From Clostridia bacterium (GTDB lineage Bacteria > Bacillota > Clostridia > Oscillospirales > RGIG8002): DNA of 64,000 nucleotides. The translations under genes were made by a program, and so were the position numbers. Where the stretch lies: assembly GCA_017620395.1 (NCBI GenBank), contig JAFZQJ010000034.1, positions 1,395 through 65,394 on the forward strand. The letters run 5' to 3'. Positions within the stretch are counted from its first letter, which is position 1. Every line of letters starts with the position of its first letter. The notes under the pieces were generated by a model, which saw only the letters and a program-made list of their open reading frames with translations, made no database searches and had not been told where the DNA came from. Below, one piece after another: positions 51,033 to 56,236 of this stretch.

Positions 51033-53180
51033 GTGAAAAGAATAACTGCAATCATAATGTGCGTTGTATTTTTGATGTCGGTCGGTGTCTTGAATGTGAG
51101 CGCATCATATATTGATGAGCGTTGGCAATGGTCAAATGACGTTCAACAGGAACGTTGTACATATCGTGTTTGGCATGAGGCGTACGAAAGACTTGGTATA
51201 AGCTTACCGGACACGTGGGGGAATGCTGCTACTTGGTATGATAATGCGCCATATGACGGATATCCAGTTGATAATAACCCATCTGCAAATTCTATTGCTT
51301 GCTGGGATGATGGGGGTTGGGGACATGTCGCATATGTAACAAGCGTTGATTCGGAGTGGGTTTATTATAGACATGCGGGGTTTGACCCCAGTGATAGGTA
51401 TACTGGCTATTGGTACAATGACGATAAAAGAAGAATAGACAATATGGGATGGGATTTCGAGGGATATATTCACCTCACCTCTTTAGATCTCGGCTCTGAT
51501 TTCTACGCGTTCATAATCAAGCAGGATTCGTGGAAGCACCTTGCGGCCGAAAACGGCAATGTTCAGTTACCGTCGACCGGAAATAACAGCTCCGATCCAA
51601 AGCAGATATGGCACTTTATCAGGATGTCTGACGGCTCTTACAAAATCGTCAACGAGTTTTACGATATGTGTATGGATGCGGCGAATTTCGGCACAAGCAA
51701 CGGTACCAACGTCGGATTGTGTACGAGCAACGATTCTACCGCGCAAAGATGGTTCATTTCAACTATGGGCAACGGATACGCGCTTTCGCCGGCATATACG
51801 AGTATGGTTATAGACGTCACCGGCGGCGTGAACGATCCCGGTACCAATGTGCAGCTTTGGCAGTCCGGAAACACGTCGGCTCAGGCTTTTTCGATATACA
51901 AACTCACGGAGGACGGCGTTACCTATTCCAAGCCCGCGAAGCCGTCCGCGGTGACGGTGAACGCTTCGGTTTCCGCCAATAAGGTTTTGAGTATCTCGTG
52001 GAGTCAGTCGCCTCTGAAGGGATCGTTTGACGCGCGCGCATACGACGTTTATATCTATAAAGACAGCGCGAGCAGCACGCCGATCCATACAAAAATGAGT
52101 TTGAGCGCCACTTCATATACATACAGCCTCCCTTCTGAAGGAACGTATTACGTTAAGGTTGCCGCCGTCAACACGAAGTATTACGGTTGGTATACGTTCT
52201 CCTCGACGGTAAAGGTGGAAACGAAGAGCGACTTGCTAGGAGATATGGACGGCGACGCTTCTATAACCGTTTCGGACGCGCTCGCCGCGCTGAGGATTGC
52301 CGCAAGGCTTGCGAGCGCCACGAGCAGCGTGAAGAAGATAGCCGACGTGGATTTCGACGGAACGATAACGGTTTCCGACGCGCTTGCGATACTGCGCGTC
52401 GCCGCGAGGCTTGCCGGTACGAAGACGCTCACCGTACAGTCGCTGAGCAGCTGTACGCTGTATCCCGAATGCTATAAGAACTATGCCGTTTCTTCCAACT
52501 ATACGGACGCCCGCGTCGAGTGGTTGAGCAGCGACGCGTCCGTCGCAACCGTCGGCAGCAACGGCAAGGTAACGGCTAAAAGCGCCGGAACGGCGACGAT
52601 AACCGCAAAGGTTTCCGTTATCGGTCAGCAGAAATCCGTTTCGTATACCGTCACGGTCAAGAACCCGAGCGTTGTTTTGGCGCCTGCTTCTCAGAGCACG
52701 TCTTATGACGCGTATTCTAACAACAGAGTCATTATCAGCGGTCATATCGCTTACAAGTGCCCGCTTCCTTCCGTGACGACGGACGTCAACGAGGCATATT
52801 GCGGCGACAGCCGCGTGAGCACTTCAAGTATTACAAAGGAGATAACGTCCGGTGATGGTAAGTTCAGCGGCGAATACTTCTATTCGTATCAGCCCGGCAC
52901 GATAAAGATCAAGTATTCATTCTCCGTCGCCGGCAAGACTTACAGCAGCACTTATACCTGCAACCTCACGCTGACGCGCACCAATCCGGATATGGGGCAG
53001 TATATAAGAAGCTCGACTTCGACGTCTTCGACGAATCTGGGTATGGTACCCGCGAATACGACTTATGTGATAACGCAGGTCGCGGTCACCGGAACGGTAG
53101 GAGAGTCGGGATGCCAGGTCTGGGGATACACGACCTATGGCGGCGTATCCGGATGGACTTTGATCGAGTATTGGCAGTAA
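51033..53180 (+). CDS. Secreted multidomain cell-wall hydrolase: CHAP + ricin-type lectin + Fn3-like + internal dockerin + Big_2-like + SH3-like C-terminus
   Basis: GTG start after an AAGGAGAG SD, then a signal peptide. CHAP Cys/His context (..ERCTYRVW.., GNAATWYD, GWGHVAYVTSV). QxW-type lectin repeats (KQIWHF, AQRWFI, VQLWQS). Dockerin at nt 52239-52418. Big_2 string (SSDASVATVGSNGKVTAKSAGTATITA). Confidence 0.8.
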   Translation: MKRITAIIMCVVFLMSVGVLNVSASYIDERWQWSNDVQQERCTYRVWHEAYERLGISLPDTWGNAATWYDNAPYDGYPVDNNPSANSIACWDDGGWGHVAYVTSVDSEWVYYRHAGFDPSDRYTGYWYNDDKRRIDNMGWDFEGYIHLTSLDLGSDFYAFIIKQDSWKHLAAENGNVQLPSTGNNSSDPKQIWHFIRMSDGSYKIVNEFYDMCMDAANFGTSNGTNVGLCTSNDSTAQRWFISTMGNGYALSPAYTSMVIDVTGGVNDPGTNVQLWQSGNTSAQAFSIYKLTEDGVTYSKPAKPSAVTVNASVSANKVLSISWSQSPLKGSFDARAYDVYIYKDSASSTPIHTKMSLSATSYTYSLPSEGTYYVKVAAVNTKYYGWYTFSSTVKVETKSDLLGDMDGDASITVSDALAALRIAARLASATSSVKKIADVDFDGTITVSDALAILRVAARLAGTKTLTVQSLSSCTLYPECYKNYAVSSNYTDARVEWLSSDASVATVGSNGKVTAKSAGTATITAKVSVIGQQKSVSYTVTVKNPSVVLAPASQSTSYDAYSNNRVIISGHIAYKCPLPSVTTDVNEAYCGDSRVSTSSITKEITSGDGKFSGEYFYSYQPGTIKIKYSFSVAGKTYSSTYTCNLTLTRTNPDMGQYIRSSTSTSSTNLGMVPANTTYVITQVAVTGTVGESGCQVWGYTTYGGVSGWTLIEYWQ

Positions 53181-53203: not shown

Positions 53204-53231
53204 AAACGCCTCCCGAGCGGGAGGCGTTTTT
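53204..53231. terminator. Bidirectional rho-independent terminator (shared by the CHAP gene and dinB)
   Basis: AAACGCCTCCCG-agc-GGGAGGCGTTTTT. The dinB stop codon lies in the T-tract. Confidence 0.85.
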
Positions 53232-54477
53232 ATATATCGAGATGCGTTTCTATGTGCCGCAGGGGATCGGCGAAGGCGGGCGGGATATACTCGCTCTTCT
53301 TGCGCAGCAGCAGCGAAGCCGGCGTTATCGCGCCCTTGCCGAAGCGGCTGCGGACGCCGTCCGCGGCGCGCTCGAGCGTCTCGGCGCGTTCGTGCCGTCG
53401 GAAGCCGCCGCCGAAGTCGAGCTGCGCGGGGAACTTCTCGTCGCAGAGGTTTATCGCCGTCAGCGTCACCGCGCGTACGGGGCAGCGCCAGTCGTACCGC
53501 TCGCGGAAGAGGCGGAAGCCCGCCTCCGCGAGTTCGCAGGCGCAGGAGGTCGGGTAGCGCGTCGCGGTTTGGTACTGCTCAAAGGCGAGCATGCTGTCCC
53601 GCACGCGCACGGAAACTCCGCGCGCCGCGAGCCCGTTCTGCCGCAGCCGCCTGCCGACGTCCTGCGCCAGATGCAGCAGCATAAGCCGGACCTCCGCGTT
53701 ATCCTTCATATCCGCCGGCGGCGTCTGCCCGTGCCCGACGCTCTTTATCGGGCTGACGTACCCGATCGGCATGACGGGGGAGAGGTCGAGTCCGTTGGCG
53801 TACTGCCAGAGCGTCAGCCCCGCCTTGCCGAAGGCGCGCTGAAGGAAGTCGGGGTTCGTCCGCGCGAGGTCGCCTATCGTGTGGATGCAGTAGCGTTCGA
53901 GCTGCGCGCGGCTGCTGCGCCCGACGCCGAACAGATCCGCCGCGGGAAGCGGCCATATCTTTTCGCGGAAGTCGCGCCCGATCTCCGTCGTCGCGTCAGG
54001 CTTCTTCATATCCGAGCCGAGCTTCGCGAAGATCTTGTTGAAGCTGACGCCGACGGAGATGGTCAGCCCGACCTCCTCGCGCATACGCCGCCGCAGCTCG
54101 TCCGCGATGGCGCGTCCGTCGCCGAAAAGCAGTCTGCTCGCGCTGACGTCGAGCCAGCATTCGTCCATGCCGAAGGGCTCGACGAGGTCGGTGTATTCGG
54201 CGTAAAGCTCCCGCGCCGCGCGCGAGAAGCGCGCGTATTCGCCGTAGTGAGGCGAAACGATGACGAGCTGCGGGCATTTCTTCTGCGCCTGCCATATCGC
54301 CTCCGCCGTCGCCACGCCGAAGCGCTTTGCCTCCTCCGATTTTGCCAACACGATCCCGTGGCGGTCCTCCTTCGAGCCGCAGACGGCGATCGGCAGCCCT
54401 TTCAGCGACGGGTCGAGCACCGCCTCGATAGAGGCGAAGCAGTTGTTTATGTCGCAGTGCAGTATCGTCCTGTCCAC
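53230..54477 (-). CDS. dinB: Y-family DNA polymerase IV
   Basis: GTG 54477 lies after an AAGGAGGG SD. The N-terminus ..ILHCDINNCFASIE.. is the Y-family catalytic motif, and the protein is 415 aa. The track's longer ORF is rejected. Confidence 0.9.
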   Translation of the reverse strand: MDRTILHCDINNCFASIEAVLDPSLKGLPIAVCGSKEDRHGIVLAKSEEAKRFGVATAEAIWQAQKKCPQLVIVSPHYGEYARFSRAARELYAEYTDLVEPFGMDECWLDVSASRLLFGDGRAIADELRRRMREEVGLTISVGVSFNKIFAKLGSDMKKPDATTEIGRDFREKIWPLPAADLFGVGRSSRAQLERYCIHTIGDLARTNPDFLQRAFGKAGLTLWQYANGLDLSPVMPIGYVSPIKSVGHGQTPPADMKDNAEVRLMLLHLAQDVGRRLRQNGLAARGVSVRVRDSMLAFEQYQTATRYPTSCACELAEAGFRLFRERYDWRCPVRAVTLTAINLCDEKFPAQLDFGGGFRRHERAETLERAADGVRSRFGKGAITPASLLLRKKSEYIPPAFADPLRHIETHLDI

Positions 54478-54597
54478 GCGCAGCCCTCCTTTCCGCGAAA
54501 ACGCGTCCGCTTTCCGCCGCCGCTTCCGCAAAAACGGCGTCAGCAAACAAGCCTTCGCCGTCTGTCCGGAAATTCGTGAAGTTTTTTCAAAAACCCC

Positions 54598-54626
54598 TTG
54601 ACAAATGGTGAAAGTCATTGTAATAT
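54598..54626 (+). promoter_or_regulatory. Putative promoter P(xre): TTGACA-17-TAATAT, with a GTGAAAG site inside the spacer
   Basis: Read directly from the sequence. It points toward xre/immA. Confidence 0.5.
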
Positions 54627-54629
54627 AAT

Positions 54630-54647
54630 GGTGAAACTTGTTTCACC
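54630..54647. promoter_or_regulatory. Perfect palindrome GGTGAAAC-tt-GTTTCACC (candidate operator)
   Basis: 8-bp arms located between the two predicted -10 elements. Confidence 0.6.
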
Positions 54648-54664
54648 AACGCTCTGTACCTATT

Positions 54665-54693
54665 ATTTTAGGTGAAACTAAGTTCATTGTCAA
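54665..54693 (-). promoter_or_regulatory. Putative promoter P(dinB): minus strand TTGACA-17-TAAAAT, whose spacer is the GGTGAAACTAAGTTCAT site
   Basis: Read directly from the sequence. It points toward dinB. Confidence 0.5.
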
Positions 54694-54703
54694 GTGAAAG
54701 ATG

Positions 54704-54719
54704 ATGAAATTACTTTCAT
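54704..54719. promoter_or_regulatory. Palindrome ATGAAA-ttac-TTTCAT (candidate operator)
   Basis: 6-bp arms, preceded by AGTGAAAG at 54694. Confidence 0.45.
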
Positions 54720-54753
54720 ATTTTTGCCGTTTTTATACGGGGGAGGAAACGAA

Positions 54754-55146
54754 ATGCTTTTCGGAGAGAAACTCAGGGAGCTGCGCAAAAAGGAAGGGCT
54801 GACGCAGGAGGCGCTCGCCGCCGAGATCGACGTTACCAAGCGCACGCTCATCAACTACGAGAGCGGCCGCTGCTACCCGAAGCAGGCGGAGATTGTCATG
54901 CGTCTTGCGAAGCGCTTTTCCGTCAGCGCGGACTATCTCATGAGCGAGGCAGACGAGTTCGTCGCGCAGGCGCACGCCCGCGGCGGCGCGCGCGGCATGG
55001 CGCAGGCGAAGGAGCTTGTCGCGGAGGTCAGCGGACTTTTCGCGGGCGGGGAGCTCGCGGACGAGGACAAGGACGCTGTCCTGCGCGCGATAATCGACGC
55101 CTACTGGGACGCGAAAAACGATAACAGGAAATACGCGAGGTCGTGA
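54754..55146 (+). CDS. XRE-family HTH transcriptional regulator
   Basis: ATG 54754 follows a GGGGGAGG SD. The HTH_3 signature is ..GEKLRELRKKEGLTQEALAAEIDVTKRTLINYESG.. (130 aa). Confidence 0.88.
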   Translation: MLFGEKLRELRKKEGLTQEALAAEIDVTKRTLINYESGRCYPKQAEIVMRLAKRFSVSADYLMSEADEFVAQAHARGGARGMAQAKELVAEVSGLFAGGELADEDKDAVLRAIIDAYWDAKNDNRKYARS

Positions 55147-55152
55147 TCCACA

Positions 55153-55650
55153 ATGAGCTATATCGAGTTGGAAGCGGAGGCGCTTGCGGCGAAATACGGC
55201 ACGCGCGATCCCTTCGAGATAGCGCGTCAGGAGGGGATAGCGGTCTATTTCCGCAATGACTTCACCAAGCTCAAGGGTATGTATAAAGTTATCCTTCGCC
55301 GCCGCTGCGTCTTCATCAACGCCGGACTGCCGCAGGAGGAGATGCGCTATATCTGCGCGCACGAGCTGGGGCACGACAAGCTCCACCGCGCCGCGACCGC
55401 GAAAGCGGGACTCTGCGACTTCGTGATGTTCGACGTGAAAAACAAGCTGGAGTACGAGGCGAATCTTTTCGCCGCGCACCTGCTCATAGACGACCGGCAG
55501 GTCTCCCACGCCGCCGTGAACGGCATGACGGCGCAGGAACTGGCGGCCGCGCTCGGCGTACCCGAAACGCTCGTCACGATAAAGGCGGCGAACTACGAGA
55601 AACGCCGTCAGCATCACGCGCCGCGCGAGCTGAAAAATCCGCTGTATTGA
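55153..55650 (+). CDS. ImmA/IrrE-family (COG2856) zinc metallopeptidase
   Basis: 165 aa with an HEXXH motif (CAHELGHDKLH) and a downstream ..EYEANLFAAHLL.. It starts 6 nt after the xre stop. Confidence 0.85.
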   Translation: MSYIELEAEALAAKYGTRDPFEIARQEGIAVYFRNDFTKLKGMYKVILRRRCVFINAGLPQEEMRYICAHELGHDKLHRAATAKAGLCDFVMFDVKNKLEYEANLFAAHLLIDDRQVSHAAVNGMTAQELAAALGVPETLVTIKAANYEKRRQHHAPRELKNPLY

Positions 55651-55677
55651 CGGCGTTATTGTGAGGAGCGCAGTCTT

Positions 55678-55922
55678 TCTTGGCTCCCTCTGAGGAGGGA
55701 GCTGTCGAGGGCGGCGGTAAGCCGTCCGAGACTGAGGGAGAGATAACGTCGATTTGCGATTTGCCGGGAGTCTGTTCCGAAGACGGCGAATTATCTTATG
55801 TGTACTTATCCCTCATCTCCGTCGCGGCGCTTATACATAAGGAGGGCTGTCGTTATCTCTCCCTCCGTCTTGCCTCGGCTTAAGCCTCGGCAATCCACCT
55901 CCCTCCTCAGAGGGAGGCAAGA
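55678..55922. mobile_element. MITE-like element: ~70-bp imperfect terminal inverted repeats flanking a ~100-bp core, no ORF
   Basis: The left arm (55678-55748) aligns with the reverse complement of the right arm (55851-55922). Identical blocks are ctccctctgaggagggag and gagggagagataacg. Confidence 0.65.
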
Positions 55923-55945
55923 ACATACTTCTGAACTCTACACTC

Positions 55946-55977
55946 AAAAACGGAAGGAACGCGTTCCTTCCGTTTTT
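55946..55977. terminator. Bidirectional rho-independent terminator
   Basis: AAAAACGGAAGGAACGCGTTCCTTCCGTTTTT. Confidence 0.85.
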
Positions 55978-56038
55978 CGTTCTAATCCGGACTTGCCCTC
56001 AATAGAATGTAGCACAAGCTGTTGAAAGGGTGAGAACC

Positions 56039-56236
56039 GTGAAAAAGAGCATATTATCGCATATCGGCGTCGGCACGGTGCGCGTCGCCGCCGCGGCGCT
56101 GATAACGGCCGTGCTGCTCGCGCTGCGGCTCGTCGGCGCGGATACGTCGCCGGTGAAACGCGAGATCGCCTCCGGCGGAAGCGCGATGGGGGTGGTGAGG
56201 TACGTTGTCGGCAAGTATAACGAGTTCACGGCGTAG
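56039..56236 (+). CDS. Hypothetical small membrane protein
   Basis: 65 aa from GTG 56039 (GGGTGAG SD) with one TM helix. It overlaps the next gene by 32 nt. Confidence 0.35.
   Translation: MKKSILSHIGVGTVRVAAAALITAVLLALRLVGADTSPVKREIASGGSAMGVVRYVVGKYNEFTA

Follow-up and report, generated by a model that had tools for sequence, protein, structure and literature searches.

We analyzed a 64,000-nt stretch of DNA from a Clostridia bacterium (contig JAFZQJ010000034.1, positions 1,395 to 65,394; hereafter the window), in which a gene for a Y-family translesion DNA polymerase is divergent from adjoining genes for an XRE-family repressor and an ImmA-type M78 zinc metallopeptidase. The LexA regulon classically includes error-prone polymerases, and the initial annotation had proposed that the repressor/peptidase pair may act as a private switch for the polymerase, which it called dinB. 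The polymerase gene (53230..54477, minus strand) encodes 415 aa, with a GTG start at 54477, a stop at 53230, and the Shine-Dalgarno sequence AAGGAGGG. The xre gene (54754..55146, plus strand) encodes 130 aa and matched Pfam HTH_19 (8e-15) and HTH_3 (2e-11). The immA gene (55153..55650, plus strand) encodes 165 aa, matched Peptidase_M78 (1.2e-16), and contains the motifs CAHELGHD and EYEAN. Its start lies 6 nt past the xre stop on the same strand, a spacing that permits one transcript, and the spacer between dinB and xre is 276 bp. The coordinates and features that had been reported for the three genes, the 6-nt gap, the spacer, and its GTGAAA repeats all held when open reading frames (ORFs), Pfam matches, and motif counts were examined.

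The polymerase matched Pfam IMS (2.3e-40) and IMS_C (2e-18) as well as the thumb domain IMS_HHH_1, and its translation contains the catalytic motifs CDINNCFASIE (Asp) and GMDECW (Asp-Glu); both the core and the little-finger domain of a Y-family polymerase were thus found. The dinB label was less secure. The polymerase scored under the curated cut-off of all NCBIfam models for DNA polymerase IV (best PRK03103, 339 vs 381 bits), and the N-terminal motif given above resembles that of UmuC/YqjW; for these reasons, Y-family polymerase is the safer name, and we use dinB below only as a label for the gene.

The AlphaFold2 model of the XRE protein (predicted local distance difference test, pLDDT, 89.8) comprised a five-helix helix-turn-helix (HTH) domain (residues 3-62), and a long helix (65-95) that a short linker joins to the final helix (103-127). 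The linker residues F96-A97-G98-G99 were invariant among 35 homologues. The best PDB relatives were the DNA-binding domain of ICEBs1 ImmR (7t8i; phmmer E = 3.5e-6, Foldseek root-mean-square deviation 1.2 Å) and, over the full length, the phi106 repressor (9sf2), and NCBIfam gave weak matches to antitoxin-type HTH families. In ImmA, residues H70, E71, H74, E100, and E102 were invariant among the homologues, and the AlphaFold2 model (pLDDT 85.8) showed a peptidase domain and a small helical domain. When this model was searched with Foldseek, PprI bound to single-stranded DNA, IrrE, and CapP were matched through their peptidase and HTH parts only. The alignment covered just about 150 of the 240 PprI residues, and the best PDB sequence match, CapP, was marginal (E = 0.013). 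A GAF domain was absent from the 165-aa model and from the Foldseek alignments. As modelled, the architecture of the peptidase is ImmA-like, not IrrE- or CapP-like.

By sequence and predicted structure, the xre-immA pair belongs to the same kind as ImmR/ImmA of the Bacillus subtilis integrative and conjugative element (ICE) ICEBs1 and c-phi105/ImmA of phi105-like phages. These systems likewise have an XRE protein of 127-130 aa with an HTH domain followed by two C-terminal helices, a peptidase gene directly after the repressor gene (an M78 protein of about 165-170 aa lacking GAF; co-transcription in the window is predicted from the 6-nt gap), and a divergent target promoter with several operators, which are predicted in our case. 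The scissile F95-M96 of ImmR corresponds to the invariant F96-A97 of the window XRE linker. The cargo differs: it is a translesion polymerase in the window, whereas ImmR/ImmA control excision and transfer or lytic genes. Furthermore, the window copy is chromosomal with a right flank common to related species, and its only divergent gene is the polymerase, which is followed by a predicted terminator.

The spacer contains two near-consensus sigma-70 promoters in face-to-face orientation. That of xre-immA (TTGACA, 17 nt, TAATAT; 54598..54626, plus strand) reads right and had 10 of 12 matches in the promoter scan, and that of dinB (TTGACA, 17 nt, TAAAAT; 54665..54693, minus strand) reads left with 11 of 12. 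Their -10 hexamers are 38 nt apart, and the predicted transcripts, with putative starts near 54634 (plus strand) and 54658 (minus strand), therefore overlap at their 5' ends. The hexamer GTGAAA occurs five times in 54608-54699 (92 bp of the spacer), against 37 times on both strands of the whole window. The motif TGAAA-N4-TTTCA had five matches in the window with at most one mismatch, three of them within 54632-54718, and none of 100 shuffles reached five. We recognized four candidate operators of 14-16 bp and of this form over the two promoters. Operator A (TGAAAGTCATTGTA, imperfect; 54609..54622; repeat families D2 and I9) lies inside the spacer of the xre promoter and is conserved in the related lineages L001 and L094. 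Operator B (54630..54647) is the perfect palindrome GGTGAAAC-TT-GTTTCACC, which occurs once in the 64 kb; it lies between the -10 boxes, over the predicted xre start and the early dinB transcript, and an equivalent central palindrome is present in other lineages. Operator C (GGTGAAACTAAGTTCA; 54671..54686; repeat families D1 and I2) lies inside the spacer of the dinB promoter, and operator D (GATGAAATTACTTTCA; 54703..54718; repeat family D1) upstream of its -35 box. The centre-to-centre distances are 41 bp for B-C and 32 bp for C-D, or about four and three helical turns. A repressor bound at sites A-D would silence both promoters together.

The promoter/operator core was near-invariant among the window, L001, and L094 despite a 37-48% difference at synonymous sites, and it constitutes a phylogenetic footprint. 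Relative to the same two lineages, the ratio of nonsynonymous to synonymous substitution rates (dN/dS) lay at 0.20-0.22 in the polymerase gene, at 0.05-0.08 in xre, and at 0.11-0.12 in immA, which indicates purifying selection on all three genes. The layout was kept in 21 of 22 lineages, with facing TTGACA-17-TAnnnT promoters and three to five imperfect palindromes; the gap between the -10 boxes was 24-39 nt, once 60 nt, and in L019 the boxes overlap by 2 nt. Irregular spacers were also observed. In one lineage (L004:4768-5620, L010:5056-5620), the spacer is swollen to 565-853 bp by AT-rich inserts with extra promoter-like and hairpin elements, and at L008:3621-4772 a 383-aa ORF, possibly an insertion sequence, lies between dinB and xre.

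The palindromes across lineages share a GAA-N6-TTC frame, and their flanking bases are lineage-specific and track the recognition helix of the adjacent XRE protein. Operators of the form TGAAA..TTTCA in the window, L001, and L003 accompany the helix TKRTLINYE; TGAAC..GTTCA in L013 accompanies TSRAIIYYE; CGAAT..TTTCG, in a copy shared horizontally among genera, TARTIQNYE; CGAAAT..ATTGCG in L028, with the half-site CGCAAT, TTRTITGYE; and ACACAT-N5-ATGTGT in L074, SWRAVQTWE. LexA recognition is highly conserved across Firmicutes. Because the symmetric operator changes are lineage-specific, XRE is the likely operator binder, and this co-variation points to the adjacent XRE protein rather than LexA. 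The restriction of the operators to the dinB-xre spacer in a phage that carries the trio, PV036429, likewise speaks for XRE.

The association of the three genes was then assessed among relatives, as the initial annotation had suggested. ImmA homologues were collected with one genome per species, which gave at least 569 loci, and the best 80 were kept for neighbourhood counts; dereplication at 90% ImmA identity left 39 clusters, about 33 of them with enough flank to be judged. ImmA has hundreds of relatives of 160-180 aa. Within the best 80 loci, an XRE homologue lay directly upstream of immA in nearly all that include upstream DNA, and a divergent DinB homologue (35-86% identity) was present in about 50. 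After dereplication, a Y-family polymerase was the neighbour of xre-immA in 25 of the approximately 33 lineages, divergent in 20 and co-directional in five. The flanks of the relatives are diverse: L086 lies in a his operon region with ABC transporters, and L085 has serine recombinases a few kb off. In the co-directional geometry, a different, longer Y-family polymerase is located downstream of immA and is followed by an ORF of about 130-143 aa. Examples of this second architecture are L065:6482-8934, L069:6416-8485, and L081:10599-12400, where the distantly related polymerase has 500-540 aa and is split in L081; in L065, a WapI-like immunity protein stands in between. At L087:5606-9355, the operon divergent from the XRE/ImmA pair consists of IMS, a 205-aa protein, a second IMS, and SRAP/YedK, that is, a four-gene damage-tolerance operon. 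The 205-aa protein had no Pfam match and is possibly ImuB-C-like.

These findings suggest that the trio is a real and widespread variation on a known switch, and we consider it probable that it works as a self-contained cassette, built on an ImmR/ImmA-type switch, which regulates itself and induces its translesion polymerase. In the mechanism that we propose, an XRE dimer binds the four TGAAA-N4-TTTCA operators and, because these overlap both facing promoters, would shut off the polymerase gene together with its own xre-immA operon. A stress signal, most likely DNA damage perceived through RecA filaments or single-stranded DNA, would activate the co-transcribed ImmA-type peptidase. The peptidase would then cut XRE in the invariant LF|AGG linker between the two C-terminal helices, and dimerization and DNA binding would be lost. 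Both promoters would fire and the polymerase would be made, until fresh XRE restores repression as the signal fades. We predict that the cut falls at F96|A97, because ImmA cleaves ImmR at F95-M96, within an inter-helix linker of this type (PMC8960796), and CapP cleaves CapH at F82-R83. Of the private switch that had been proposed, the functional link between XRE/ImmA and the polymerase stood, on the comparative evidence of adjacency, operator layout, co-variation, selection, and housekeeping context; induction, cleavage, and LexA independence stay at the level of prediction. Several results weigh against the proposed cassette, and they are given in the following paragraphs together with the alternatives on which they bear.

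The polymerase could be an ordinary SOS gene that LexA represses through the spacer palindromes, with XRE/ImmA acting independently, for example as a toxin-antitoxin-like pair of the COG2856-Xre type. The shared GAA-N6-TTC frame is that of the Firmicute LexA box (Cheo box), CGAAC-N4-GTTCG, and operators in eight of the 22 lineages, none of them in the window clade, lay within one mismatch of this box, while 0.07 lineages are expected from shuffles. The eight are L014 (5435-5584), L012, L016, L018, L004, L022, L059, and L080, in each case in the dinB-xre spacer, and L014 has a perfect LexA-type box, CGAACAACGGTTCG, between the -10 boxes. In these lineages, LexA could take part in the control, and the resemblance may represent cross-talk with, or mimicry of, the SOS regulon. 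The weak matches of XRE to antitoxin-type HTH families would also suit an independent pair. In the window, on the other hand, no spacer site was within one mismatch of the LexA box, and two-mismatch matches were no commoner than chance; the TGAAA/TTTCA sites of the window clade are devoid of the consensus C and G at positions 5 and 10. Elsewhere the operators diverge as far as that of L074, following the XRE helix, and the horizontally transferred copy retains its own operators in many genera. Moreover, three to five sites per spacer are typical of phage-type repressors. Regulation by LexA with a bystander XRE/ImmA pair consequently appears quite unlikely to us.

The next results concern the pair itself. 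Eight of the approximately 33 related lineages have xre-immA with no polymerase, and among 80 relatives in viral contigs a polymerase was near only five; judged from these neighbourhoods, the XRE/ImmA pair is therefore not intrinsically a polymerase regulator. In a neighbour-joining tree of ImmA, which is too rough for gains and losses to be counted, the polymerase-linked lineages were spread over most of the clade with unlinked ones interspersed, and polymerase linkage is, as far as this tree indicates, a trait of a large sub-group rather than of the whole ImmA family. It can accordingly be argued that XRE/ImmA is the leftover immunity module of a decayed prophage or ICE, which lies beside an unrelated housekeeping dinB and regulates no host gene. 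The family does include true element immunity pairs; P0179, a close XRE/ImmA relative beside an integrase, NikA, and PemK, is the plain immunity pair of a small integrative element. Most viral-contig relatives are unaccompanied by the polymerase, as noted, and the trio itself is carried by temperate phages and ICE-like islands. Against such a remnant stand the adjacency in 25 lineages with unrelated flanks and in two geometries, the shared control design that puts operators inside the polymerase promoter, the purifying selection on all three genes, the linkage of the trio to the same right-flank housekeeping genes within the clade, and the surroundings of the window copy.

These surroundings were inspected over about 46-61.4 kb. 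The flanking genes checked encode V-ATPase subunits, a CHAP/ricin/dockerin protein, an M50 peptidase, an aminotransferase, asparaginyl-tRNA synthetase, Fur, and a penicillin-binding protein, and none of them was an integrase, xis, conjugation, phage, or ICE gene. No att-like repeat was found near the trio, and the tRNA scan detected no tRNA, as a possible integration site, in the 64-kb window. The three genes do not differ from their surroundings in GC content. The trio and its right flank are syntenic with L001 (82-84% DNA identity) and L094; the left flank is different. Because of the housekeeping flanks, the right-flank synteny, and the low dN/dS, the window copy is, on the evidence of its sequence context, not a mobile-element module, and we regard a decayed immunity remnant as highly improbable. 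The initial statement that no integrase, phage, or ICE gene adjoins the trio was thus borne out. Its further opinion, that the pair may be a switch rather than a mobile-element immunity module, agrees with the housekeeping context of the window copy but sets the cassette at large too sharply apart from mobile elements, since the same cassette is found on ICE-like islands and in Heliusvirales phages and close XRE/ImmA relatives are ordinary immunity pairs.

On the left side, the gene convergent with dinB (51033-53180) encodes a secreted protein with CHAP, ricin-lectin, dockerin, and Big_2 domains and has a GC content of 0.43-0.54, compared with about 0.6 for its neighbours. Moreover, the window, L094, and L095 each have a different left flank beside the trio. 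The low-GC convergent gene and these differing flanks suggest that the left side of the locus is prone to rearrangement.

In contrast to the window copy, the cassette itself is, by sequence comparison, mobile across genera. In Faecalibacterium, Gemmiger, Dorea, Blautia, Dysosmobacter, and further genera, approximately 24 loci are 95-98% identical in DNA sequence over 2-8 kb, and these horizontally shared copies sit in an ICE-like or defence-island-like context. In a Monoglobus record, the cassette lies beside sigma-70 genes, tet(40), and tet(O/32/O). No match was obtained when the horizontally shared trio was searched against plasmids with megablast. Damaged copies of the shared cassette were seen at L058:5011-5307, L060:4271-4531, and L073:5683-5892; Faecalibacterium prausnitzii strain 2 and Hominifimenecus retain only about 90-100 codons of the polymerase, and xre is truncated in one Clostridium sp. 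contig.

At least 10 temperate Heliusvirales gut phages carry the trio, with a polymerase 49-55% identical to that of the window. We considered XRE as the master repressor of such phages and rejected this for PV036429, in which the operators are confined to the dinB-xre spacer and the dinB unit is closed by a strong terminator of its own. Pfam showed no second recognizable repressor in PV036429, and the rejection rests on the distribution of the operators alone. In this phage, the trio appears to behave as a private unit and not as the master switch. Just past the dinB terminator (L093:4955-5100), where a minus-strand ORF is annotated in the record of PV036429, the plus strand instead reads like the N-terminal part of a DeoR/HTH_11-type regulator (RRAAILDAL..TIANLAEEFGVNEKTIRRDIEEL). 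This putative DeoR-type protein may be the one that actually governs lysogeny in the phage.

The trigger is the weakest step of the proposed mechanism. In IrrE and CapP, the binding groove for single-stranded DNA is formed half by the GAF domain and lies between it and the peptidase domain. Since the modelled ImmA has no GAF domain, direct sensing of single-stranded DNA is doubtful. ICEBs1 ImmA, its nearest counterpart in architecture, requires RecA or RapI, and by analogy the switch may be independent of LexA but not of RecA; "SOS-independent" may then mean only "LexA-independent". The wiring could also be as we propose with another trigger, such as the entry of an element as single-stranded DNA, phage infection, or a RapI-like quorum-type signal, and with a polymerase that acts on behalf of the mobile element, in complementary-strand synthesis, for instance, or in mutagenesis on arrival. 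This would agree with the frequent occurrence of the cassette on ICE-like or defence islands and temperate phages, with the control of defence operons by CapH/CapP-type pairs, and with the response of ICEBs1 ImmA to RapI. The window copy and its relatives L086 and L094 are, however, chromosomal, with housekeeping surroundings and under purifying selection, and the cargo operon of the relative L087 also includes SRAP and a second polymerase, both of them classical genes of damage tolerance. Taken as one, the different trigger and the service to an element seem to us rather unlikely.

A broader idea, which we put forward as a tentative and rather doubtful possibility, is that ICEs and temperate phages spread the trio through gut and rumen Clostridia as a mobile cassette that regulates itself and provides "mutagenesis on demand". 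The GAF-less ImmA of the cassette would perceive damage in a way distinct from both LexA/RecA autocleavage and the single-stranded DNA groove of IrrE and CapP, and its operators would mimic the host LexA box in about one third of the lineages and thereby give cross-talk with the SOS response. XRE could then occupy SOS promoters of the host, or the cassette could be co-repressed by LexA. If true, this would amount to a horizontally acquired control of error-prone synthesis that bypasses LexA.

The autoregulated cassette that we favour was also compared with other known switches. DdrO/IrrE (PprI) of Deinococcus similarly combines an XRE repressor of about 130 aa with an M78 peptidase, and damage-triggered cleavage there derepresses repair genes independently of LexA; IrrE and PprI were, moreover, the best structural matches of the window ImmA model. 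IrrE, however, has three domains (M78, HTH, and GAF, with the single-stranded DNA groove), whereas the window ImmA has no GAF domain. In addition, ddrO and irrE are unlinked and govern a genome-wide regulon, whereas the window unit appears to be local and has three genes. Within the 64 kb of the window, the operator was confined to the spacer. The C-terminal domain of DdrO is unrelated in sequence to that of the window XRE protein. CapH/CapP, of the cyclic-oligonucleotide-based anti-phage signalling system (CBASS) and other defence operons, resembles the trio in having an HTH repressor and an M78 peptidase divergent from the controlled operon, and there cleavage is triggered by single-stranded DNA on DNA damage. 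CapP has a cysteine-switch loop and, unlike the window ImmA, a GAF domain, and the cargo consists of anti-phage operons, with no polymerase cargo listed in that work, whereas the window cargo is a polymerase.

The umuDC-like operon of Tn5252/Tn5253 in streptococci likewise unites a Y-family polymerase with its own cleavable repressor in a small mobile unit on ICEs and phages, where it confers ultraviolet (UV) tolerance or mutagenesis. The hdiR-umuC cassette of S. uberis, another streptococcal umuC cassette, reportedly also provides a Y-family polymerase with its own cleavable repressor. In these cassettes, the repressor is a LexA/UmuD-like self-cleaving S24 protein, whereas in the window trio the DNA-binding and protease functions are divided between XRE and M78 proteins. 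We considered the Tn5252-type UV-resistance operon as the same system but rejected this, since it employs a UmuD/LexA-like protein and YolD in place of an M78 peptidase.

In the literature on ImmA/M78 with dinB, umuC, or DNA polymerase IV, we found only the paper of Aravind, Anand and Iyer (2013) and Deinococcus reviews. The passages of the former that were available to us link DUF955 peptidases to a DinB/ImuB-C neighbourhood in one or two sentences. The gene-neighbourhood association is the same as in our trio, and the L087-type neighbourhood (IMS, 205-aa, IMS, SRAP) is the one touched on there; an HTH partner, promoters, operators, a cleavage site, mobility, phyletic spread, or an experiment do not figure in these passages. 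The survey of Y-family neighbourhoods by Timinskas and Venclovas (2019) mentioned no XRE, HTH, or metallopeptidase partner. The initial annotation knew of no described three-gene module of this kind. In the literature searched, we indeed found no description of the unit as such, of the facing promoters with co-varying operators, of the invariant linker, or of the spread of the trio through Clostridia on chromosomes, ICE-like islands, and phages, nor any experimental work on it. Already known, however, are the design class to which it belongs, an HTH repressor and an M78 peptidase diverging from a cargo operon as in ImmR/ImmA, DdrO/IrrE, and CapH/CapP, and, from the 2013 passages, the DUF955-DinB neighbourhood.

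Taken together, a Y-family polymerase with its own two-protein switch of the ImmR/ImmA kind is conserved as a package in many species of gut and rumen Clostridia, and at least one copy of the cassette lies beside tetracycline-resistance genes. A switch that functions as predicted would give major anaerobes of the gut and rumen a route to damage-induced mutagenesis that does not depend on LexA. The route would be portable, so that mutagenic capacity itself would be horizontally transferable, and the trio would offer a compact natural system for the question of how GAF-less ImmA peptidases sense stress, which is unsettled even for ICEBs1. The cultured carriers Ruminococcus sp. zg-924, Gemmiger formicilis MCC627, Dorea acetigenes, and Alitiscatomonas aceti make the switch directly testable.

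Further features of the locus lie outside the three coding regions and the promoter core. Between dinB and the convergent CHAP gene, the terminator scan called, on the plus strand, a GC-rich hairpin of 11 pairs (53204..53229), which presumably acts as a bidirectional terminator. Measured from the predicted start site, dinB has a 5' leader of about 180 nt (54478..54658, minus strand) that contains hairpin arms at 54524-54539 and 54556-54571 followed by a U-run. This hairpin and U-run (ACGGCG..CGCCGUUUUU; 54524-54571, minus strand; inverted repeat I1) stand in a block conserved in L001 and partly in L094, and the whole leader folds more stably than shuffles (z = -3.0). The leader is far shorter in most other lineages. 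Its hairpin could be an attenuator or a second layer of control. Across the whole window, no Rfam family was found at the gathering score, and hence no riboswitch or small RNA that would explain the spacer or the gap of about 550 bp past immA. This gap (55651-56204) also contains no convincing ORF; its part at 55652-55950 could not be aligned with L001, and L094 has a called 64-aa gene there.

Finally, a second, longer M78/ImmA-IrrE protein (200-285 aa) recurs among the relatives on the divergent side, where its gene either follows dinB within one operon or takes the position of dinB. It was observed at L047:3134-3990, L090:742-2046, and L091:2219-3270, and upstream of xre in L015, L035, L036, and L064, and it is preceded by one or two small ORFs of 80-100 aa that had no Pfam match.

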